From a virus (taxonomy: Duplodnaviria > Heunggongvirae > Uroviricota > Caudoviricetes), in the IMG/VR virus record IMGVR_UViG_2698536657_000021, positions 1-22,387 of that record: a stretch of DNA of 22,387 nucleotides; one strand, given 5' to 3'. Below, in pieces: positions 617 through 18,399 of the stretch. The position numbers and the translations under genes were made by a program. Within the stretch, counting starts at the first letter, position 1, and every line of letters starts with the position of its first letter. The notes beneath the pieces were generated by a model. The model worked only from the letters and a program-made list of their open reading frames with translations. It had not been told where the DNA came from and searched no databases.

Positions 617-2599
617 TCATGCCGCGGCATCCGCGTTGTTCACTTCCACCTTCACACTGTCAATAAGCAGCGTATATGTCGCCGCCTTTGATATGCCTGT
701 CAGTTGCAGTTTGTCCGCCGACCCTGATGCCGGAGATTTCACCAGTGTGAACGGCGTACCCCGTTTCTCATCCAGTACCGGCGTCACCTGAATGCTGTTG
801 TTTCCGGCAAACTCAAAAGCCAGTGTGTGCCATCCGTTATCAAAGACCCCGAACGTATCCAGCTTCGCATTCTGCTTCTTGTGGTACATCGCGTTCAGGT
901 TCGTCGCATCCGTCTGCAGGAAGAAGGACATCAGCATGTCGTTGCCTTCCTCTGACAGCGTCACTCCCTCCGGCAGGGACGACAACTGCCAGTAAATACC
1001 CAGGGCAAACTGATTCGGCACCAGTGAGCCAGGCACCTTAAACCGCACGCTCACACGTCCGCCTTTCTTCAGCAACTCTGCTCCCTGCCCGGCTGCATCA
1101 TGCTCCAGAAACCAGATGTGGCTTTCCGGTTTGTTCAGTTGCAGGGCCTTACCACCGGTGGCACCCTCATCACTGACCACAGCCTCAGCGATGTTTTTAT
1201 TAACACTGTCTCCGCTCGCCGGTTTGTGATAATAGCGCCAGCCCTGTGATGCCAGGTCTTCACCGGACGCCAGCAGACTCATCAGGGTTCGGTTACTGAC
1301 CGGAGCTTCCGGCTCTCTCTCCGGGCCTTCACCGGAAGGTCCGGTGGGCTTCACCGTATCAGGCTGTTTTCCGGTAATGAATTCAGCGGTTCTCCCGGCG
1401 TGCAACAGAATCGCCGTTGCCAGACGGTCGGAAATAATCCCACGGCGAGCCCATGAACTGAAATGGCTTGCCCTGTCCACAGATGTCCAGGTCTTCTGGT
1501 CATTACGCCACTTTGAACCGTAATAACCGACGGTTTCCAGGTCCGGGTCTTCTGCCGGGTTATTGGTCTGCACATTCGCACCATTCTCATCCGTCATTAA
1601 CGGTACAAAGAAAATGTTCTGCGACTCCTTACCCTTATACCCTCCGTATACTGATGCATACCCTTCCGCATGACGCTGCTTCCAGAAATACGTTGTGTCC
1701 CCGCAAATCCACGGTACCGCTGATGCGCTGCCTCCTGTGCTCTGTGATGCCTGACCGGCAAGCTCCGTTCTGAACTGATTCACCATCGCACTAAACAGCC
1801 CCGGATGCTGCGCATGCGTCCCCACTGCCGCATCACCTTCTCCCTGCATCCACACCACCGCAAGCAGACGGTTTTTCGGGTTCTTCGCCAGTGCGGCTTT
1901 AGTCCGGCTCACCAAATCCTGATACAGCGGCTTACCCACACCCCAGCGCAGTGAATTTTCCGATGCACCGGCTGATTCGCTGTATGTGCCGTCTGCCCCC
2001 GTTGTGAATGCCGAAGCACCACGGCAGCACGGAACCAGCAGAATGCCCGCATTCGCCGGTATAAACGGCAGCAGTTTTTTGGCGATATGCAGCCCCTGCC
2101 CCACGGTTCCGTACTGCCCCTTTGACAGGTCCGCTTTCGGATGGTTAAGACGGCTCATGTCCTGCACATCATGCAGACAATGGTCCGCCGGAATAATGTC
2201 GTTATACTTACAGGCGGCACCGCCCGGTGTCACCGTACTGCGACGCGCCAGCTGCTTAATACGCGGGTCCGGACGGTCATATGTCTCCGGCAGCGGAAGG
2301 CCTTCACCATACGACATGCCGTTTGACTGCCCTGCCAGAACCACAACAAAGTAATACTCCGGGTCGCTGGTGGCGCTGATTACTGTGCCTTCTCCATCCG
2401 ACGGCTTCACCAACACAGGTGTGGTGACATCACCTTCCGCCGCAATGGCCTGCATCAGGGTATAAGGCGTGATGGCCACCGGGCTGCCAAATGGCTGCCA
2501 CCCCTCCTTCAGTTTTTGAGTCAGTCGCTCTGCAAGGTCTGACGGCGACGCCGCCCTGACCACATCGTAGTGTTTAAATGCCATGGTTCTTTCCACCAT
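617..2599 (-). CDS. nanS: prophage sialate O-acetylesterase NanS-p-like (DUF1737 N-terminal domain plus SGNH/SASA esterase domain)
   Basis: 660-aa track ORF. N-terminus MAFKHYDVVRAASPSDLAERL resembles DUF1737; VVVLAGQSNGMSYGEG is the SGNH-type esterase block I motif. Sits downstream of the phage tRNA cluster as in Stx-phage relatives. Alternative start ATG at 2584 (MAFKHYDV...) has a GGTGGAAAG context. Confidence 0.8.
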   Translation of the reverse strand: MVERTMAFKHYDVVRAASPSDLAERLTQKLKEGWQPFGSPVAITPYTLMQAIAAEGDVTTPVLVKPSDGEGTVISATSDPEYYFVVVLAGQSNGMSYGEGLPLPETYDRPDPRIKQLARRSTVTPGGAACKYNDIIPADHCLHDVQDMSRLNHPKADLSKGQYGTVGQGLHIAKKLLPFIPANAGILLVPCCRGASAFTTGADGTYSESAGASENSLRWGVGKPLYQDLVSRTKAALAKNPKNRLLAVVWMQGEGDAAVGTHAQHPGLFSAMVNQFRTELAGQASQSTGGSASAVPWICGDTTYFWKQRHAEGYASVYGGYKGKESQNIFFVPLMTDENGANVQTNNPAEDPDLETVGYYGSKWRNDQKTWTSVDRASHFSSWARRGIISDRLATAILLHAGRTAEFITGKQPDTVKPTGPSGEGPEREPEAPVSNRTLMSLLASGEDLASQGWRYYHKPASGDSVNKNIAEAVVSDEGATGGKALQLNKPESHIWFLEHDAAGQGAELLKKGGRVSVRFKVPGSLVPNQFALGIYWQLSSLPEGVTLSEEGNDMLMSFFLQTDATNLNAMYHKKQNAKLDTFGVFDNGWHTLAFEFAGNNSIQVTPVLDEKRGTPFTLVKSPASGSADKLQLTGISKAATYTLLIDSVKVEVNNADAAA

Positions 2600-2845
2600 A
2601 TTAAAAACAATTCTTTAAAATACCTGACATGCAATACAGAAAAAAAACACAAAACCATACCTTAAATGAAAACCTCATCATAAAGCAGGTATGCATGGAT
2701 AAACTACAAGACGGGATATAAAAAACCTGTATTTAAATAAACAATAAACAACATCAGAAAAATAATTCTGCTCTATGGTTTACATTCAAAATTATCATTT
2801 ATACTTTTCAGAACATCACCAGCACAGCATAAATAAGGGGGCTAA

Positions 2846-3181
2846 ATGAAGTGGATTGTGATTGATACAGTTACCCAGCCATCATGCGGAATATCTTTTT
2901 CAGCCATATGGAGTAAAATAAAATTAATAATCTGGTATCAATCGGATGTTTTCTTACCTCCTGAAAGTATATTTACGTTGACTCACACAGGTATCGTACT
3001 TAATAACAAAGTGCTACCTGTAACCATTTACAACGTTGTACCATTCAATAAAAGATTCTGGGATTTAATCAAAAACAGCCAGGAATGTCCTGCAAATTCA
3101 GATAACGTATTGAAAGAATGCTTTAATAATCATTGCATTCTGCAAATATGCCCTTACGGACTAAAACAACAGTGTCCATAA
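2846..3181 (+). CDS. hypothetical Cys-rich protein, 111 aa, in an AT-rich island
   Basis: ATG at 2846 with strong SD AAGGGGG 5 nt upstream; stop TAA 3179-3181. Low GC and divergent from nanS-p across a very AT-rich 245-bp intergenic region. Six Cys residues. No family recognised. Confidence 0.5.
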
Positions 3182-3204
3182 TTAGTTTACTCATATCTTA
3201 CAAA

Positions 3205-3236
3205 ATTCATATAAAAGCCCCTCCGGAGAGGGGCTA
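3205..3236 (-). terminator. GC-rich hairpin terminator, possibly bidirectional
   Basis: 8-bp perfect stem AGCCCCTC (3216-3223) / GAGGGGCT (3228-3235), loop CGGA. The minus strand has TTTTAT after the stem; the plus strand has only AAAG, so termination of the 2846..3181 gene would lack a U-run. Confidence 0.45.
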
Positions 3237-3482
3237 AAGCCGCGTATCTGTATCATCATGCGCATGATGCCGGGTGCCTCCCGGTGAGTTCAGCCCGGTG
3301 CCACCAAACCAGCGCGTTTACTTTCCTGGGTATCAAAGATAACACCTAATGCACCAGTCGCCCCTCCGCTCAGGGGGATTCACCATGCCTGTTTCTTTTA
3401 ACAAACTCCCCGCAAAACAGACAACTGTCAACCGTCTGAATTGTGAGACATTTAAAATTTTCGGGGCATGACTGATACCCGG

Positions 3483-3647
3483 CTAACTACCTGGCATGTC
3501 CTTTTTCACCAAAGGAAAAAGCACCACCACAATACCGACCACCAGCACTCCATCCGCCAGCACCGACATGATCCTGCTGGTGAAATCCACCATCACCACC
3601 AGAAACAGCAGGAGTGCCACAGCGGCCAGACGCAGTTTTACCGTCAC
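3483..3647 (-). CDS. small membrane peptide, 54 aa, two hydrophobic segments, translationally coupled to the upstream TerB-like gene
   Basis: Not in the ORF track (GTG start). GTG at 3647-3645 overlaps the TerB-like stop TGA (3646-3644) as GTGA; SD GGAGA 7 nt upstream; translation VTVKLRLAAVALLLFLVVMVDFTSRIMSVLADGVLVVGIVVVLFPLVKKDMPGS; stop TAG at 3485-3483. Confidence 0.4.
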   Translation of the reverse strand: MTVKLRLAAVALLLFLVVMVDFTSRIMSVLADGVLVVGIVVVLFPLVKKDMPGS

Positions 3648-4075
3648 AGGTGGTTCTCCAGTCGCAGGCCAAGAACACCAGCAATCTCTTCCAGAACCTT
3701 ACGCTCTTCCGGCTCAATTTCACCATCTGCTTCAGCAATAGCCACCGCCACATCCAGCACATCTTCCGCTTCACGCGTATCGTGTTTCACATCTTCAATT
3801 TCACGCAACGCCGCTCGACGACCAATTTTAAAGTTGGTGTCAAGCTGACCTGTGATCGTGGCACTGATGGCATTAATTTCTGACGTAAACGCGGACAACG
3901 CAGGCTGGTTACGTAATACCTGTTCGATCTTCGCTTTCTCTGAAGCCTCACATTCACCATCTGCATAGGCTACCAGGTAGGCAGCATTAATAACCGCCTG
4001 TGCCAGATCGCGTTTCTCAAACTTTTTAATTTCCGTTGCTGCTCTGCGGGTTTTCTTTTTGAAAATACCAAACAT
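3644..4075 (-). CDS. TerB-like (tellurite-resistance TerB domain) protein, 143 aa
   Basis: ATG at 4075-4073 with SD AAGGAA 8 nt upstream (the track's 4147 start is GTG with a poor N-terminal extension). Two-repeat architecture with YADGECEASEKAKIEQVL and AEADGEIEPEERKVLEEIAGVLGL, resembling the TerB ADG-x-E/D repeat fold. Confidence 0.65.
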   Translation of the reverse strand: MFGIFKKKTRRAATEIKKFEKRDLAQAVINAAYLVAYADGECEASEKAKIEQVLRNQPALSAFTSEINAISATITGQLDTNFKIGRRAALREIEDVKHDTREAEDVLDVAVAIAEADGEIEPEERKVLEEIAGVLGLRLENHL

Positions 4076-4204
4076 CGTGACGTTCCTTTGGGTGGGTGAG
4101 CCAACGCCCGGGAGCGATCTGCCCACAGAGAAAGTCACACTGACCACTCCGTAAGCTCACCCCCGAAAGGCTCTGTGGTTGATATGCGCCGGGCGTGGCG
4201 CGGA

Positions 4205-4230
4205 TACAAAAAAGGCCGCCAATAGCGACC
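4205..4230 (-). terminator. intrinsic terminator after the 69-aa ORF
   Basis: On the minus strand: GGUCGC-UAUUG-GCGGCC hairpin (6 bp including one G-U) followed by UUUUUUGUAU. Shares the core GATACAAAAAAGGCC with the terminator at 4802..4827. Confidence 0.5.
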
Positions 4231-4264
4231 TCAGTTACGGGATTATTCTGGGGTTAAACGACTG

Positions 4265-4474
4265 TTACTCCCCCCAGACAAAATCATCACTTCCTGTTCG
4301 ATGCGAGCCATAGTGAACCTCGTACTTATCTCCCGTCTTTCTTGCTTCCGTTTCTGCGTCTTCCTCTGTCGCAAAAACCCCAACAAGATGCCAGGGCGAG
4401 CTTCTTACCACAGCCCAACCTTTAACCCATCCTTTGTTGTCCTTATCTTCCATTAACACTTCAGAAACAAACAT
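4265..4474 (-). CDS. hypothetical small protein, 69 aa
   Basis: ATG at 4474 with SD GGAGA and a 5-nt spacer; track ORF; Trp-rich (MFVSEVLMEDKDNKGWVKGWAVV...). No family recognised. Confidence 0.5.
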   Translation of the reverse strand: MFVSEVLMEDKDNKGWVKGWAVVRSSPWHLVGVFATEEDAETEARKTGDKYEVHYGSHRTGSDDFVWGE

Positions 4475-4526
4475 ATTTATCTCCTTGTGGGTACCCAGAG
4501 ATATTTTATGATTGCTCCCGGTCAGA

Positions 4527-4751
4527 TCAATAAAGTGGCTTCAATTTTGCCTTAATGATCAAATCAGGGTGATTGACGGAATCGTACACCACCTCAATAT
4601 TTTCATCCGTGGCGTCGATAAGATATTCTTTTACATAAGGACCTGTTGATTTTCCATGAAATACATCTTCAACAAGTACACTCTCCCCCTGAACAACACG
4701 AAAACTAACTTCTGTTTCGAACGGACCAATCGTCACCATCAGTTTTTTCAC
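4527..4751 (-). CDS. hypothetical small protein, 74 aa
   Basis: GTG at 4751-4749 preceded by AGGAGG with a 4-nt spacer; track ORF (VKKLMVTIGPFETEVSF...). No family recognised. Confidence 0.5.
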   Translation of the reverse strand: MKKLMVTIGPFETEVSFRVVQGESVLVEDVFHGKSTGPYVKEYLIDATDENIEVVYDSVNHPDLIIKAKLKPLY

Positions 4752-4801
4752 ATAGCCTCCTGATAAGCACTCGATTTATTAGTTAATGGTGTAACGCTGA
4801 T

Positions 4802-4840: not shown

Positions 4841-4917
4841 TGGCGCGTTGTACTGGATTCGAACCAGTGACCGATTGCTTAGAAGGCAATTGCTCTGTCC
4901 GGCTGAGCTAACAACGC
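4841..4917 (-). tRNA. argO: tRNA-Arg (anticodon UCU)
   Basis: Manual cloverleaf fold of the reverse complement: perfect 7-bp acceptor stem GCGTTGT/ACAACGC, D-stem GCTC/GAGC, anticodon loop CTTCTAA, T-arm ACTGG-TTCGAAT-CCAGT, discriminator G, 3' CCA. Confidence 0.85.
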
Positions 4918-4930
4918 TGAATACCGATAA

Positions 4931-5007
4931 TGGACCGCCATCGAGGACTCGAACCCCGCGCAGCCAGCTTCGAAGGCTGACGCTCTGTCCCGATGAGCTA
5001 ATGGCGG
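4931..5007 (-). tRNA. argN: tRNA-Arg (anticodon UCG)
   Basis: Manual fold: acceptor CCGCCAT/ATGGCGG, D-stem GCTC/GAGC, anticodon loop CTTCGAA, T-loop TTCGAGT, 3' CCA. Confidence 0.8.
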
Positions 5008-5016
5008 TATGTGATA

Positions 5017-5092
5017 TGGTGGCCCTTGCTGGATTTGAACCAGCGACCTGGCGATTATGAGTCGCTCGCTCTCACCACTGAGCTAAAGGGCC
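5017..5092 (-). tRNA. ileZ: tRNA with CAU anticodon, ileX/ileZ-like (lysidine tRNA-Ile2 type), 76 nt
   Basis: Reverse complement GGCCCTTTAGCTCAGTGGTGAGAGCGAGCGACTCATAATCGCCAGGTCGCTGGTTCAAATCCAGCAAGGGCCACCA closely resembles E. coli ileX; anticodon loop CTCATAA. The Ile versus Met call is by that similarity only. Confidence 0.8.
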
Positions 5093-7964: not shown

Positions 7965-9023
7965 TTATGCTTTCCACTTCAGAACACCCGAATTTCTCGC
8001 GTGCATTAAAAAACGAATCAGCAACAACAGCTGACTGCCGTGTTTCTCTTCAAAATCTTTTACCCCGGCGTGTAGTTCGTTATGGCATTTACGGCATAAC
8101 GGAATAACAAACAAATCGTCAGCCTTTGTTCCCATACCTCCCAGTCCATGACCAATGATGTGATGCGGATCATCTGCCTGATTGCCACACGTCATGCATT
8201 TCTGCGTTTTTACCCAGCGCGTGTATACAGGCATCTCTTCCCGTTGTGGTTTCTGGCGCTGGAGGTACTGAGCCGGAGACTCCGGATCAACGGCGATGCT
8301 TACTAACGTCTTTTCCTGGGGGGGATTTTGTTGCTGGTGGACGTGAAGTGGCAGCGCAATATTTTTTGTGCGCTGCTTCAGTATGCTGGTGGCGGCCTGC
8401 TCTCCCGGTATGATGTCGCTCTCACGGTATACGGAGCGGATTTTTTCCGCTGGTAATCCCAGCGAACGACGCACTACTGCCTCAGGTAGTGCATCCACCA
8501 CCTGATTGCAGACCGCCCACCAGGATAATTCGGCCAGCGATAACTCCCTCTCCTGCGTACTGCTTATTGCGTGACGGATGACGTCAATCATCCAGGCAAC
8601 CAGATTCTGCTGAGCAAGTTGATCGAGTGATTCTGATGTCTGGTCGCGCAGCTGGTTGTCACAGTGCCAGCACAACACCATCGCGCCGGTACCGTAACGG
8701 TGAATGACGGTTTCGCTGTGATGATAATCACCGTGTGGCCACTGGCAGGATTTCACGTGACGTAATAACCAGTCAGACAGTGCACCTGCACCACCTGCTG
8801 CACGAATAACCCGCTCATCGCTGAAAAATGGCAGTAATGTTTTATCCTCTGCCAGCGGCTGGCGAACGGCAGGAACGACTCCGGACGGCAGACCGCGCAT
8901 GTTTTTCGGTTCCGGTTCCACCAATATTCTGCCGTTATGGAATGCTGACATTGATTCACGGCCCGGCTTAAGGAGCACCATCCCGAGTTCCGGTACCAGA
9001 ACAGGTCGAAGTAATACCCGCAC
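7965..9023 (-). CDS. DUF968 (YdfU-like) protein with C-terminal HNH-like Cys/His motif
   Basis: Track ORF, 352 aa. GTG start at 9023 immediately follows the upstream stop and a GGAGG SD. C-terminal CMTCGNQADDPHHIIGHGLGG...CRKCHNELHAG. Sits upstream of rusA as ydfU does in Qin. Confidence 0.75.
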   Translation of the reverse strand: MRVLLRPVLVPELGMVLLKPGRESMSAFHNGRILVEPEPKNMRGLPSGVVPAVRQPLAEDKTLLPFFSDERVIRAAGGAGALSDWLLRHVKSCQWPHGDYHHSETVIHRYGTGAMVLCWHCDNQLRDQTSESLDQLAQQNLVAWMIDVIRHAISSTQERELSLAELSWWAVCNQVVDALPEAVVRRSLGLPAEKIRSVYRESDIIPGEQAATSILKQRTKNIALPLHVHQQQNPPQEKTLVSIAVDPESPAQYLQRQKPQREEMPVYTRWVKTQKCMTCGNQADDPHHIIGHGLGGMGTKADDLFVIPLCRKCHNELHAGVKDFEEKHGSQLLLLIRFLMHARNSGVLKWKA

Positions 9024-9024
9024 G

Positions 9025-9303
9025 TTACCTCCAGATGCGCTGCTGGAATGTGCGGGACGGACGCGGTGGGCGTTCGGAATAAGGGAGCCTGACGGAGATT
9101 ATCCAGTGACGACGATCGAAGCTGAGATCTTTCTGAAACTCGTAACCACGTCTGCGGTAGCACTGGATCAGCCATTCGGCCTGTTCTTCAGTGCATGGGT
9201 CATGCTGGAACCAGTCAGATTTGAATGCATGAGAACGCCGCCCGTGCCTGCTGGCAGGGGCGGTGGAGTTATCCGAATTGTGTAATTTGGTATCTTGCGC
9301 CAT
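9025..9303 (-). CDS. hypothetical nin-region protein, 92 aa
   Basis: First ATG (9303-9301) in track ORF 9025..9357 (the track start is TTG). Stop TAA abuts the DUF968 start. SD is weak, so the start is uncertain. No family recognised. Confidence 0.4.
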   Translation of the reverse strand: MAQDTKLHNSDNSTAPASRHGRRSHAFKSDWFQHDPCTEEQAEWLIQCYRRRGYEFQKDLSFDRRHWIISVRLPYSERPPRPSRTFQQRIWR

Positions 9304-9373
9304 CGGTTGTCTCTGCTGGCGCAGCAGGTGCCAGTTGTTCAGGCTGGCGTGCGGCAATATTGTCTCTGATTTC

Positions 9374-9403
9374 TGTTGTCGTCAACAGGCAGCGTGCTAT
9401 CAT
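9374..9403 (+). promoter_or_regulatory. putative parDE promoter with overlapping palindromic operator
   Basis: -35 TTGTCG (9376-9381), 16-nt spacer, -10 TATCAT (9398-9403). Inverted repeat TGTTG-tcgt-CAACA (9374..9387) overlaps the -35, consistent with antitoxin autoregulation. Confidence 0.35.
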
Positions 9404-9438
9404 CGAATAGTGTTCTATCCTACTCCGTGAGGTTTACC

Positions 9439-9696
9439 ATGCGTACAACCCAACAATTCAGCATTACATTAACTAACGAGATGGCTGACATGGTGCGCGC
9501 CCGTGTGGCTTCCGGCGCCTATGCTTCAGAAAGCGAGGTCATTCGTGAAGGGCTTCGCGCACTGAATGAGCGCGATAAAGCAATCGAAGCGTGGTTAACG
9601 CATTCAGCCGCCCCCTCTCTTGATTCTATCCGCGAAAACCCAAACAACGGACGCTCCATTTCACAGGTTCGCGTCGCGATTCGATCCGGGAAGTAA
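9439..9696 (+). CDS. parD: ParD-like ribbon-helix-helix antitoxin (type II TA)
   Basis: ATG at 9439 with SD GAGG and a 6-nt spacer. MRTTQQFSITLTNEMADMVRARVASGAYASESEVIREGLRAL fits the ParD/COG3609 RHH pattern. A 5-bp gap separates it from the downstream toxin gene. Confidence 0.75.
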   Translation: MRTTQQFSITLTNEMADMVRARVASGAYASESEVIREGLRALNERDKAIEAWLTHSAAPSLDSIRENPNNGRSISQVRVAIRSGK

Positions 9697-9701
9697 TCTG
9701 C

Positions 9702-10001
9702 ATGACATATGAAGTCATCATTACTCCTGAGGCCGAACAACAAATAATCAACCTGCACAGATATATAACGGAGAAAGCAGGGAACATCATTGCTGACAAT
9801 TATGCCAATGCGCTTCTTGATTATCTTGATGGGTTTTCTACATTCCCGCATCGGGGCAATAAACGCGATGATATTCGCCAGGGGATGCGGGTAACTCATT
9901 TCCGCCACAGAACGATTATTGCTTTTGCCGTTGATGGCAGAAAAGTCTTTATTGTCGGTATCTATCATGGTGGGCAAAGTTATGAAACCGATTTCTTATA
10001 A
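9702..10001 (+). CDS. parE: ParE/RelE-superfamily toxin (type II TA)
   Basis: Track ORF, 99 aa, directly after the RHH antitoxin. ParE-like layout: N-terminal helices (ITPEAEQQI...YITEKAGNIIADNYANALLD), C-terminal beta region (RVTHFRHRTIIAFAVDGRKVFIVGIYHGGQ). Confidence 0.75.
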   Translation: MTYEVIITPEAEQQIINLHRYITEKAGNIIADNYANALLDYLDGFSTFPHRGNKRDDIRQGMRVTHFRHRTIIAFAVDGRKVFIVGIYHGGQSYETDFL

Positions 10002-10082
10002 ACTTTTACCCACATCATTCCGGTGTTAGAATAAACCGTCTGCCCCTCTCTTACTGCGGATTCGTAGGCTATATAAATCAAA

Positions 10083-10116
10083 GATCCCGGCTCATGTTTG
10101 TGGCGGGATCTTTTTT
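10083..10116 (+). terminator. intrinsic terminator of the parDE unit
   Basis: 7-bp stem GATCCCG (10083-10089) / CGGGATC (10104-10110) followed by TTTTTT (10111-10116). Confidence 0.5.
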
Positions 10117-10203
10117 CGGCGATTTATCCCCAGCGGCAAATCGAATACACCACCAGCGCCACCGCCATTGCAATACCAACATTTGAGAAGGCCTCAGGCC
10201 AGC

Positions 10204-10734
10204 TCATTGGCGCACCTCCTTCGGCGGTTCTGGTAGCGGCATCCAGTGTGATGGTATCCACGACGCACCAGGTACTACCCACCCATCATTAGCGTCAGGA
10301 TGCCCCGGGATGTAAGTCGCCCATTTCATTCGCCAGTCACCTTTCCTGTCAAACTCCCTGGCAACAAGAACGGCTGTTTTGGTATCCGGCATTCGCTCAC
10401 TACAGCTTATCCAACCATCCGGAGTTACCGGCACTGGCTTGGCGGTATAAAGCGGTGTTATATCTGCCCGAAAATTACATGCTTTATGCAGCCGCACCCA
10501 CCGTTCGACTTCTGCTTTGTCAGAATACATACCAGTGAACGTGTTATATTCACGGTCAATTTGCGTGAATGTTACCTTCCACGCCACCGGCTCTGCTTCC
10601 AGAGATGCCAGTGCGATACGCAGGGAAGCCAGGATATTCCCCTGGTAATCATCAAGCCCGAAAGGAAGCTCATCACGAACGCTTTCATAATCGTTGATAG
10701 CCTGCTGCAGCCATTCTCTTGTGATAGTGCTCAT
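10204..10734 (-). CDS. DUF551-domain phage protein
   Basis: Track ORF, 176 aa. ATG at 10734 overlaps the upstream stop as ATGA. C-terminal ...WIPSHWMPLPEPPK is the DUF551 signature. Confidence 0.65.
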   Translation of the reverse strand: MSTITREWLQQAINDYESVRDELPFGLDDYQGNILASLRIALASLEAEPVAWKVTFTQIDREYNTFTGMYSDKAEVERWVRLHKACNFRADITPLYTAKPVPVTPDGWISCSERMPDTKTAVLVAREFDRKGDWRMKWATYIPGHPDANDGWVVPGASWIPSHWMPLPEPPKEVRQ

Positions 10735-11408
10735 GATTCCTCTCCTTTACCGGCTGCGGCGGCGATACGAAAAAGTTTAATGTCGCCGCTGTCTGAGTTC
10801 TGCTTACTCCAGATAAGTGACGTTTCTCGCCCGCGCTCGTTGATATGCATGAGATTTCTTTCGTCTGTAAAGCAGGCAGGGATGAAAGCTACAGGGAGTG
10901 GATAGAGGGCAACTGCATCATCACCCCATTGCTCAACTGCATATTTCTCATCGGTTGTGAACCTCGACATGAATGATGTGACGTTAGCATTCCTCATCCA
11001 TGCAACTGGCTTAACGTCCCGCGCCTGCAGCTCAGCAATCCGCTTCTCTGCTGCTTCCAGCTCAACACGCAGCTTCCCTACCGTTAGCGCAATATCCTCG
11101 TTCTCCTGGTCGCGGCGTTTGATGTATTGCTGGTTTCTTTCCCGTTCATCCAGCAGCGCCAGCACGGTAGCTGGATTGGCTGCGGCGATGAATTCAGCAT
11201 TGGCCTGCTGTTCCATTTGGAAATCTTCATCGAAACCGCTTTCAGGATGCGCTCCTTCAATTCTGCAAATGGGAATATATCCAGCAACTTCACGATGAAT
11301 TAGCGCATCATCACCATCAAATCGTCCCTCTCCATATTCGAGCGACCACTCGCCACACGTTGCTTTTTCTGCCTTAGCACGCAATGCCTGATAGTCAATC
11401 TTGCTCAC
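10731..11408 (-). CDS. Ead/Ea22-like protein, paralog 1
   Basis: Track ORF, 225 aa. GTG start with AGGAGGCAACCA context. Motif QQANAEFIAAANPATVLALLDERE followed by a coiled-coil segment. Confidence 0.7.
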   Translation of the reverse strand: MSKIDYQALRAKAEKATCGEWSLEYGEGRFDGDDALIHREVAGYIPICRIEGAHPESGFDEDFQMEQQANAEFIAAANPATVLALLDERERNQQYIKRRDQENEDIALTVGKLRVELEAAEKRIAELQARDVKPVAWMRNANVTSFMSRFTTDEKYAVEQWGDDAVALYPLPVAFIPACFTDERNLMHINERGRETSLIWSKQNSDSGDIKLFRIAAAAGKGEES

Positions 11409-15711: not shown

Positions 15712-15775
15712 AGGTAACAATAGTTACATGATAATGTCAACCATAGTGACATCCATTGGTAGTAACATTGGTTAC
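15712..15775. promoter_or_regulatory. immunity-region operator/promoter cluster between cro-like and the repressor gene
   Basis: Three palindromes: GTAAC-AATA-GTTAC (15714..15727), TGTCA-N7-TGACA (15735..15751), GTAAC-ATTG-GTTAC (15762..15775). Minus-strand promoter: -35 TTGACA (15740-15735) and -10 TACCTT/TTACCT (about 15717-15712), overlapped by the first operator. Confidence 0.5.
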
Positions 15776-16450
15776 ATGAACACTACCATTAGCGAACGCA
15801 TCCGAAAGCGTCGAAGAGACATAGGCCTAACCCAACAGCAGGTTGCAAAGGCTATCGGCGTCACCCGTGTATCCGTAACAAAGTGGGAAAATGGTTCAAC
15901 AAAACCGGACGGTGAGAATTTACATCTGCTGTCAAAACTGTTTTCCAAATCACCTGAATGGATTCTTTATGGGAAAGATATTCACGATAAAGTCGATGAT
16001 TTGCGATTGAATCAACTCCCCTACCTTAGTGACAACATCACCCGGTTGCCCGTTTTAACGTGGGAACAGGCTGGTTACTGGGATATGAGCTACCCAGTAA
16101 CCGAAATCCCTGGTATTAAGAATTGGGTTGATGTCATGACAAAAACATCTGAAAACTCTTTTTTATTGCGCGTTGAGGGGGATTCAATGACAAACTCTAA
16201 CGGTTTACCAACGATCCCCGACGGCTCCACGGTGTTGATCACTCCATGCTCTGGCAACATTGGGGAGATGGCGGGAAAGATTGTTCTAATCCAACTAGAA
16301 GGAATACCAACTGTAACACTGAAAAAAGTCGCAGTTGATGGCCCAAACATCTACCTACTGTCATTAAATCCGCTTTACAAGCCTATAGAACTCAATGGCC
16401 GCTACACCATTAAAGGTAAAGTCTCACAAATCCATCAATACTTAGATTGA
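15728..16450 (+). CDS. CI-type repressor (XRE-family HTH plus LexA-like S24 autopeptidase domain)
   Basis: Track ORF, 240 aa. HTH IGLTQQQVAKAIGVTRVSVTKWENG; S24 catalytic Ser in VEGDSMTN and Lys in VTLKKV. The ATG at 15776 (MNTTISERIRK...) is a plausible true start because operator copies fill 15714..15775. Confidence 0.8.
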   Translation: MIMSTIVTSIGSNIGYMNTTISERIRKRRRDIGLTQQQVAKAIGVTRVSVTKWENGSTKPDGENLHLLSKLFSKSPEWILYGKDIHDKVDDLRLNQLPYLSDNITRLPVLTWEQAGYWDMSYPVTEIPGIKNWVDVMTKTSENSFLLRVEGDSMTNSNGLPTIPDGSTVLITPCSGNIGEMAGKIVLIQLEGIPTVTLKKVAVDGPNIYLLSLNPLYKPIELNGRYTIKGKVSQIHQYLD

Positions 16451-17808: not shown

Positions 17809-17848
17809 TTTTCTGGTGATTCGGCGGAAATGGATATCCGCCATTTTT
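17809..17848 (+). ncRNA. dicF: DicF-like small RNA (cell-division inhibitor sRNA family), short variant
   Basis: Begins TTTCTGGTGA, as I recall the 5' seed of E. coli DicF; then hairpin GGCGGA-aatggata-TCCGCC (17823-17842) and ATTTTT. About 180 nt upstream of dicB, as in Qin. Exact ends uncertain. Confidence 0.55.
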
Positions 17849-18025
17849 AAAGTGTATTTTGTGATGCGGTGAATGCGGCTAAGCGCACGCGGAACAGTTA
17901 AAACAAGCGGTCTTTTACTGGCGTAACAGACATCAACTAACAATCCGGCGTTAATTGTTAACTGGTTAACGTCACCTGGAGGCACCAGGCACCACATCAC
18001 AAAATTCATTGTTGAGGACGCGATA

Positions 18026-18214
18026 ATGGAAACGTCACTACCAAACGTTAATACGTCTGAAAGGTGTTTTAATATTGGTATTCTGCTCAGTAACCGGGAG
18101 TTTACTGAGGACGCCATCAGGATGAGAAAATATGAGCCTTATCTTCTCAATGATAATTCCATACTCTCCAGAATTGCCCTTCTTGAACTTGGCATTTTCG
18201 GAGGGCAGCAGTGA
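18026..18214 (+). CDS. dicB: cell-division inhibitor DicB
   Basis: Track ORF, 62 aa. METSLPNVNTSERCFNIGILLSNREFTEDAIRMRK closely resembles E. coli DicB as I recall it. SD GAGGA upstream. Confidence 0.85.
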   Translation: METSLPNVNTSERCFNIGILLSNREFTEDAIRMRKYEPYLLNDNSILSRIALLELGIFGGQQ

Positions 18215-18399
18215 GTTCAGCGTTTGCACTGATGATGACGGTTTTTCTTATAACAGGTGAGCCACAGAATGTGATTACCGGAATTTATGCCAGTAAAGAA
18301 TCCTGCCTCCAGGCAAGAGACGAGCAAAAAATTTCTGGTGAATGCCTCCCGTTAAACAAAGTATCGCTGTACCTGAATAACGAAACACCGGCTGGATAA
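18211..18399 (+). CDS. ydfD: YdfD-like small lysis/membrane protein
   Basis: Track ORF, 62 aa. GTG start overlaps the dicB stop as GTGA. Hydrophobic N-terminus MSSAFALMMTVFLITGEP. Same position as ydfD after dicB in Qin. Confidence 0.65.
   Translation: MSSAFALMMTVFLITGEPQNVITGIYASKESCLQARDEQKISGECLPLNKVSLYLNNETPAG

Follow-up and report, generated by a model that had tools for sequence, protein, structure and literature searches.

The 22,387-nt stretch of DNA analysed here, referred to below as the window, is the virus record IMGVR_UViG_2698536657_000021 of IMG/VR (Caudoviricetes; positions 1 to 22,387 of that record). On its plus strand it carries two adjacent genes, parD and parE, which very probably constitute an intact type II toxin–antitoxin (TA) operon of the ParD/ParE type, organized as a small independent transcription unit ('moron') of a lambdoid Escherichia coli prophage. 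The pair was already catalogued: automatic annotation correctly named it as a canonical ParDE module and its products are identical to RefSeq entries WP_001260978.1 (ParD family antitoxin) and WP_000220597.1 (RelE/ParE family toxin). The gene pair alone adds little; the value of the analysis is in the anatomy of a ~770-bp module, with borders set at the level of single bases, which occurs in two unrelated phage contexts.

DNA comparison with other prophages delimited a discrete module of ~770 bp (~9354/9356..10122), which comprises a predicted promoter, the two genes, a 3' untranslated region (3' UTR) and a predicted terminator. Its main components are as follows.

9354..10122, plus strand: whole parDE module, with borders set by comparison with other loci
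9439..9696, plus strand: parD-type antitoxin gene, 85 amino acids (aa), ATG at 9439 and TAA at 9696; open reading frame (ORF) and profiles
9702..10001, plus strand: parE-type toxin gene, 99 aa, ATG at 9702 and TAA at 10001; ORF and profile

No other ORF lies inside the module. The antitoxin gene comes first, it is separated from the toxin gene by 5 nt and both are on the plus strand; the two are therefore closely spaced, co-directional small genes conserved as a pair, the arrangement expected of a type II TA operon. The pair was kept in 15 of the 16 related loci examined, which come from several orders of Proteobacteria, and the antitoxin-then-toxin order recurs in Salmonella, Yersinia, Enterobacter, Erwinia, Pantoea, Paraburkholderia, Polynucleobacter, Desulfovibrio and Dyella.

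The sequence-only reading had proposed a ribbon-helix-helix antitoxin paired with a toxin of ParE/RelE fold, and had named a lack of ParD/ParE profile hits as grounds for giving the proposal up. Profile matches above cut-off, PDB matches and fold ranking all bear the proposal out. The antitoxin scores 32.2 bits against Pfam ParD_antitoxin PF03693 (cut-off 21) and 53.1 bits against TIGR02606 (cut-off 46.2), and it matches PHROG 6494, 'antitoxin'. Its profile matches are limited to residues 6–51; the N-terminal half of the protein corresponds to a ribbon-helix-helix domain, and the sequence matches of its 50 N-terminal residues in the PDB are ParD antitoxins (3kxe, 7ycv, 7b22, 6x0a, 8c24 and 5ceg). 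As to the toxin, it scores 40.7 bits against Pfam ParE_toxin PF05016 (cut-off 23), residues 5–94 aligning with profile positions 1–89 of 89, and it matches PHROG 5232, 'toxin'.

The RelE/ParE superfamily has a ParE and a RelE branch, and the toxin could in principle be a RelE-type ribosome-dependent mRNA endonuclease, as encoded by relBE of the Qin prophage, rather than a ParE-type gyrase poison. This would be compatible with PF05016 and with the RefSeq name 'RelE/ParE family', both of which span the two branches, and with a conserved toxin segment (RVTHFRHRT) that is rich in arginine and histidine. However, a profile made from 18 toxin homologues matched ParE toxins only among PDB sequences (6x0a with E = 1.4e-5, then 5ceg, 7ycs and 8c24) and retrieved no RelE. 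The AlphaFold (AF2) model of the toxin, which has a mean predicted local distance difference test (pLDDT) score of 83, consists of a helical hairpin (two helices) and a three-stranded sheet; when it was compared with the PDB using Foldseek, ranks 1–22 were all occupied by ParE-family toxins (template modelling (TM) scores of 0.59–0.73), with the RelE-type RNases YoeB, HigB, YafQ and RelE ranking below all ParE structures (TM scores of 0.4–0.5). In addition, the partner is a ribbon-helix-helix antitoxin that matches ParD and not RelB. Membership of the RelBE family was rejected on these grounds and we consider a RelE-type activity very unlikely; because of the homologue-profile matches and the Foldseek ranking, the toxin is placed, by sequence and model comparison, on the ParE side of the superfamily.

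Purifying selection acts on both genes. The ratio of non-synonymous to synonymous substitution rates (dN/dS) is 0.07–0.16 for the antitoxin in comparison with diverged copies from Salmonella (locus L009) and from a Shiga toxin 2a (Stx2a) phage (L004), and ~0.10 for the toxin in comparison with the Salmonella copy. A toxin value against a Yersinia similis locus (L020; dN ~1) was discarded as probably due to a frame problem in the coordinates or to a damaged gene. Constraint is uneven along ParD: residues 1–47 show zero amino-acid changes with respect to L004 and L009, which are the two closer diverged copies, and the C-terminal half evolves faster (dN/dS of 0.14–0.35, against ~0 in the N-terminal half), which would fit a region specific to its partner. 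These values bear on whether the pair could be a decaying, non-functional remnant, an idea suggested by the truncated toxin copies that exist in related phages and among database homologues. Such a status is hardly credible for the window pair, given that both ORFs are full length and identical to proteins of hundreds of genomes, that dN/dS is ~0.1 and that the predicted promoter, Shine-Dalgarno sequences and terminator are intact.

The borders of the module were obtained from two sets of relatives. On the left, the flank common to hokD-bearing prophages stops matching at 9353, and homology to the Stx2a phage ArgO145 and to a copy from Stx2a phages that retains only the antitoxin begins at 9356. 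On the right, a hokD-bearing prophage (L006) matches again over 10123..10207; in this prophage and in another one (L005) the same flanks hold hokD in place of parDE. Homology to ArgO145 spans window positions 9356..10207 with 96% identity. The interval of 9358..10116 given by the sequence-only reading was thus close to the limits found by comparison. The genes on either side of the module are listed below.

10204..10734, minus strand: DUF551
10731..11408, minus strand: Ead/Ea22
9025..9303, minus strand: 92-aa ORF
7965..9023, minus strand: DUF968
beyond DUF968, minus strand: RusA, then Q

Lying between the replication genes and Q, parDE is antisense to the surrounding minus-strand early-right genes, in agreement with the earlier description of a unit inserted antisense amid minus-strand phage genes. 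The same antisense orientation to flanking phage genes was observed in every phage context examined (the window, ArgO145, L028 from Erwinia and L030 from Salmonella). Phage morons in the sense of Hendrix and colleagues are promoter–gene–terminator units lying between phage genes in opposite orientation, and present or absent in similar phages. No essential difference separates the window module from them: its predicted promoter and terminator are its own, it stands between phage genes and it is absent from otherwise similar phages. PHROGs 6494 and 5232 are both filed under the 'moron' category; the term describes the genomic status of the module, not a function.

The ArgO145 copy indicates that the module has moved between phage contexts. 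Genes gp08 and gp09 of this phage (NC_049918), labelled antitoxin and toxin in the record, belong to the same module, promoter, 3' UTR and terminator included, with 96–97% DNA identity to the window. The record calls a shorter antitoxin of 68 aa, without the N-terminal beta-strand. The location is another one: in ArgO145 the module is in the early-left region, back-to-back with a unit composed of isrK, C4 and an ORF6N antirepressor gene, whereas in the window it lies upstream of DUF968-RusA-Q.

The elements predicted to control expression of the pair lie upstream of parD, where a GAGG is present at 9429..9432, and downstream of parE.

9376..9403, plus strand: putative sigma-70 promoter of parDE (-35 TTGTCG at 9376..9381, 16-nt spacer, extended -10 TGcTATCAT at 9395..9403); consensus scan
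9373..9388, no strand assigned: palindrome CTGTTG-tcgt-CAACAG over the -35
9356..9385, minus strand: putative remnant of a divergent isrK-type promoter (-35 TTGACG at 9385..9380, 18-nt spacer, -10 AATATT at 9361..9356); consensus scan
9405..9424, plus strand: conserved block GAATAGTGTTCTATCCTACT, located after the -10 and ahead of the Shine-Dalgarno sequence, nearly invariant in nine prophage cassettes
10080..10116, plus strand: predicted intrinsic terminator (10-bp stem within 10080..10113, AAAGATCCCG / CGGGATCTTT, then T6 to 10116)

The promoter TTGTCG-16-TATCAT put forward by the sequence-only reading was found again by the scan. The scan of the region gave three sites where 1.8 were expected, which is not significant alone. 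Nine cassettes from E. coli, Salmonella, Yersinia, Enterobacter and Erwinia, with toxins 62–100% identical, were aligned over their upstream DNA: TGCTA of the -10 and the -35 core GTCGTCAA show no variation, and every -10 fits TAnnnT (TATCAT, TATTAT, TAAAAT, TATTTT and TATCCT). This conservation argues for a parDE promoter at this position.

The palindrome over the -35 had been regarded as a likely autoregulatory operator, and here our reading departs from the earlier one. The palindrome alone is unremarkable, because 79 perfect inverted repeats of its size are present in the window. Its arms are complementary at only 3–5 of 6 positions in the Yersinia, Enterobacter, Erwinia and Salmonella copies, with the core GTCGTCAA unchanged, and its centre reads TTGACG on the other strand, that is, the -35 of the divergent isrK promoter. 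It was accordingly downgraded as an operator: the palindrome probably consists of two overlapping divergent -35 hexamers and is probably not the operator. The block at 9405..9424 appears to be a better candidate and is most likely the site recognized by ParD. Its right half, ATCCTACT, occurs once in the window. In distant homologous pairs (Paraburkholderia, Pantoea, Winslowiella and Dyella), whose antitoxins have the N-terminal strand RTTQQ(F/M)SITL in common, the equivalent upstream position is occupied by a perfect palindrome, (A)GTAGGATT-n-AATCCTAC(T), of which ATCCTACT forms the right half. The full palindrome of the distant type, AGTAGGATTnAATCCTACT, was not found in the window at up to three mismatches, only its right half being intact there.

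At the other end of the module, the strong terminator announced by the sequence-only reading folds as a hairpin followed by T6, with a free energy of −19.7 kcal/mol (z = −2.4) on the plus strand. A simple terminator scan had missed this hairpin since its loop is longer than 8 nt; a weak site reported by that scan inside the toxin gene (9923..9942) was disregarded. The stem is nearly symmetric, and the hairpin folds on the minus strand as well (−18.8 kcal/mol, z = −3.3), with a U-rich tract, UUUGAUUUAUAU, after it. With this symmetry and a run of A upstream, the stem may also end minus-strand transcripts. It is conserved in ArgO145 and L007. The 3' UTR and terminator are not common to the Salmonella, Enterobacter and Erwinia copies, so that their conservation is assessable only from closely related E. 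coli copies. The plus strand of the 3' UTR also contains, after the toxin stop codon and ahead of the terminator, a promoter-like sequence (TTTACC-16-TAGAAT, 10005..10032, with TG before the -10), which could in principle yield a short RNA of ~75–80 nt ending at 10116. It is kept only among close E. coli copies and is therefore uninformative.

A scheme for the operation of the module can be borrowed from established ParDE biology. The sigma-70 promoter with its extended -10 would direct synthesis of a single bicistronic mRNA ending at the hairpin-T6 terminator. ParD dimers, or a ParD–ParE complex, would use the N-terminal ribbon-helix-helix domain to bind the operator, most likely the conserved block that follows the -10, and would repress the promoter; the C-terminal half of ParD would wrap around ParE and neutralize its presumed toxicity. 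If labile ParD were degraded and not replaced, free ParE would most likely poison DNA gyrase.

Several points weigh against interpreting the module as an active ParDE operon. The match of the promoter to the consensus is modest (9/12). The toxin is only 14–24% identical to any characterized ParE, so that gyrase is a putative target by extrapolation, and some ParE-fold toxins may act differently. Literature searches (on ArgO145, ParDE with prophage and Shiga toxin, isrK with antirepressor, and ParE with defence) found no experimental paper on this parDE pair. Lastly, a defence role has no direct support from PADLOC, where neither protein matched a family at E ≤ 0.01.

The nearest characterized systems are ParD3-ParE3 of Mesorhizobium opportunistum (PDB 5CEG and 6X0A) and other solved pairs, namely Caulobacter ParD1-ParE1 (3KXE), Mycobacterium tuberculosis ParDE1 (8C24) and those of Pseudomonas aeruginosa (6XRW) and Vibrio (ParD2-ParE2, 7R5A). 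The window pair resembles them in gene order, in the N-terminal ribbon-helix-helix of the antitoxin and in the ParE fold, and they provide its best sequence, profile and fold matches. It differs from them in the low identity of the toxin given above, in the restriction of the antitoxin match to its N-terminal part and in being phage-borne. Membership of the three-component PaaR-PaaA-ParE class was rejected, as the module has only two ORFs and its antitoxin is of the ParD ribbon-helix-helix type. The PaaR2-PaaA2-ParE2 system from a cryptic prophage of E. coli O157:H7 (PDB 5CW7; PMC8630535) likewise places a ParE-fold toxin on an E. coli prophage, but it consists of three genes with a separate regulator and a PaaA antitoxin devoid of a ribbon-helix-helix domain, instead of two genes with a ParD-type antitoxin, and the toxins are 17–19% identical.

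Homology between K-12 Qin and the window covers ydfU and the adjoining upstream DNA, as far as window position 9320; past this breakpoint Qin has rem-hokD-relE-relB-ydfV-flxA, and the window has parDE from 9356. In O157:H7 strain 86-24 and others, hokD is found between the same 92-aa ORF and DUF551. The corresponding junctions were counted among 5426 complete E. coli genomes.

92-aa ORF adjoining parD: 328/5426 genomes
92-aa ORF with hokD nearby: 2698/5426 genomes (at some of these places, additional DNA separates the 92-aa ORF from hokD)
92-aa ORF adjoining rem (Qin type, rem-hokD-relBE): 2282/5426 genomes
isrK adjoining parD: 42/5426 genomes

The homology breakpoints of the Qin and hok/sok prophages and of the window fall within ~35 bp of each other, and all three kinds of module sit immediately upstream of the small ORF, ydfU (DUF968) and Q. 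These comparisons support the existence, upstream of 92-aa ORF-DUF968-RusA-Q, of a cargo slot exchanging TA modules, as the sequence-only reading had suggested from the position of relBE in Qin. That part of the analogy which concerns the slot holds, with homology up to 9320; the position of relBE itself is less equivalent, since relBE is co-oriented with ydfU and separated from it by rem and hokD. The toxin families are different as well, namely a RelE RNase in Qin and a Hok membrane peptide with Sok RNA in the hok/sok prophages, and relBE and hok run in the same direction as the phage genes, parDE being antisense. The slot therefore alternates three TA types (hok/sok, relBE and parDE) in thousands of E. 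coli genomes and offers a convenient natural experiment on what makes temperate phages retain toxin modules immediately ahead of their late-gene activator. Rather than a neutral cargo site, it might even be a dedicated toxin-module position in lambdoid prophages, where the resident module either gates early-right read-through into Q or makes deletion of the late-gene switch disadvantageous. The resident of the window would be parDE, with its near-symmetric terminator, antisense transcription and remnant divergent promoter; we hold this reading to be unlikely. That the terminator, together with convergent transcription between the early-right genes and Q, could influence read-through into the late regulator is speculation. 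As a separate observation, hok/sok was found within 1–1.5 kb of the parDE-isrK-antirepressor cluster in Erwinia (L028 1152..1471) and Salmonella (L009 2589..2739) prophages, and type I and type II modules therefore cluster outside E. coli too.

The most likely role of the module is selfish maintenance of the prophage or of a prophage segment, with exclusion of other phages as a possible second role. That the cassette is mainly an abortive-infection or phage-exclusion module protecting the lysogen would be in keeping with its residence in a variable prophage slot common to other toxin modules, and with a literature that increasingly ties TA systems to phage defence (PMC10440598). It is nevertheless an unlikely main function, if one to be taken seriously: no PADLOC model matched, for which reason assignment to a catalogued defence system was rejected, and the literature searches found no report of phage defence by this pair.

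Outside the window, the parDE promoter has a divergent neighbour. A promoter on the opposite strand sits 7 nt before an Rfam match to isrK in ArgO145, in Stx2a phages and in Salmonella and Erwinia prophages; the isrK match is followed by the C4 antisense RNA and then by the ORF6N antirepressor gene. This is a unit of the isrK-orf45-anrP type known from Gifsy-1 (PMC4825925). In all phage contexts other than the window it adjoins the parD promoter back-to-back, with isrK and C4 matches (all on the minus strand) at L002 4059..4241, L004 2312..2494, L009 3462..3648, L028 2459..2643 and L030 2461..2660. Stems in isrK/C4 vary in sequence but keep their pairing (GCAGCCG/CGGCTGC, ACGCCAG/CTGGCGT and ACGGTC/GACCGT). 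The window itself is devoid of isrK, C4 and antirepressor DNA according to both DNA comparison and Rfam search. Since the left border of the module falls inside the -10 of the isrK-type promoter, the window module shares ancestry with an isrK-linked copy and has lost isrK, C4 and the antirepressor. This -10 reads TATATT in other copies and AATATT in the window, with a T to A change at -12.

A search of 50,697 phage records retrieved the toxin from no more than three distinct genomes, namely those of ArgO145 (two accessions), Stx2_09E025 and Stx2_EH2011. An orphan ParD, with 86% DNA identity to that of the window, is present in at least 38 Stx2a-converting phages, in which parE is reduced to 7 codons (MAYEVPH*). 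Examples are L004 2584..2860 (Stx2a phage Stx2a_JNE122398) and L032 2287..2544 (E. coli 2012EL-2448); downstream of the orphan are a lipoprotein-like ORF and an orphan HigA-type gene. Its DNA-binding half shows 10 synonymous and 0 non-synonymous changes and its toxin-binding half has diverged. E. coli 2012EL-2448 contains both an orphan ParD and a full parDE, in different prophages.

These copies raise the question of whether the main selected function is regulatory, ParD acting as a Mnt/Arc-like repressor of the neighbouring divergent promoter and the toxin being secondary. Elsewhere this promoter drives isrK-C4-antirepressor; in the window it faces 92-aa ORF-DUF968-RusA-Q. The back-to-back overlap of the parD and isrK promoters in ArgO145, Stx2a phages and Salmonella and Erwinia prophages would suit such a function, as would the orphan antitoxins, whose DNA-binding half is kept when the toxin is cut short. 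However, isrK, C4 and the antirepressor are absent from the window, the leftward -10 is without its -12 T and the toxin gene is intact and under purifying selection, so that we regard a mainly regulatory function as improbable for the window module. In Stx2a phages, the orphan ParD might be retained because it represses isrK/antirepressor, which would be a corollary of the dedicated-position reading of the slot, or because it serves as antidote when a co-resident prophage encodes ParE. Whether Stx-phage orphan antitoxins cross-neutralize the toxins of co-resident prophages is a question raised by these data; like that of the slot, it bears on prophage stability and induction in Shiga-toxin-producing strains.

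As to the wider setting, the gene order of the window is that of a lambdoid prophage: int and exonuclease; a cI-like S24 repressor; YdaT, an O-like protein and a DnaC-like protein; Ead/Ea22 and DUF551; parDE; the 92-aa ORF, DUF968, RusA and Q; a DNA methylase and three tRNAs; a TerB-domain gene and the STnc100 small RNA where Stx prophages carry stx; and a NanS-p-type esterase. From this comparison, the window prophage is a stx-less relative of a Stx2b prophage. Downstream of the tRNA trio (Met-CAT/Arg/Arg, 4841..5092), the stretch 2585..4795 is different DNA where the closest Stx prophage (L001, from E. coli 2012EL-2448) holds stx2b; it includes the gene for the TerB-domain protein (3644..4147, minus strand) and the STnc100 match (3205..3417, minus strand, 131 bits). 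The L001 prophage, otherwise very similar, possesses a second TA pair, relB and a RelE/ParE toxin, adjoining its repressor gene (17846..18324). The immunity region of the window differs, with an S24-type repressor at 15728..16450 and without the relB and RelE/ParE pair.

Finally, an unannotated 27-aa hydrophobic ORF, MSWPEAFSNVGIAMAVALVVYSICRWG, is present at 10124..10207 on the minus strand, for which no match was found in PHROG. Its ATG overlaps the stop codon of DUF551 (ATGA) and it ends just short of the terminator hairpin. The ORF is conserved in ArgO145, L006 and L007, after three different upstream genes and with its membrane-like segment unchanged; its behaviour is that of a conserved linker marking the right edge of the slot.

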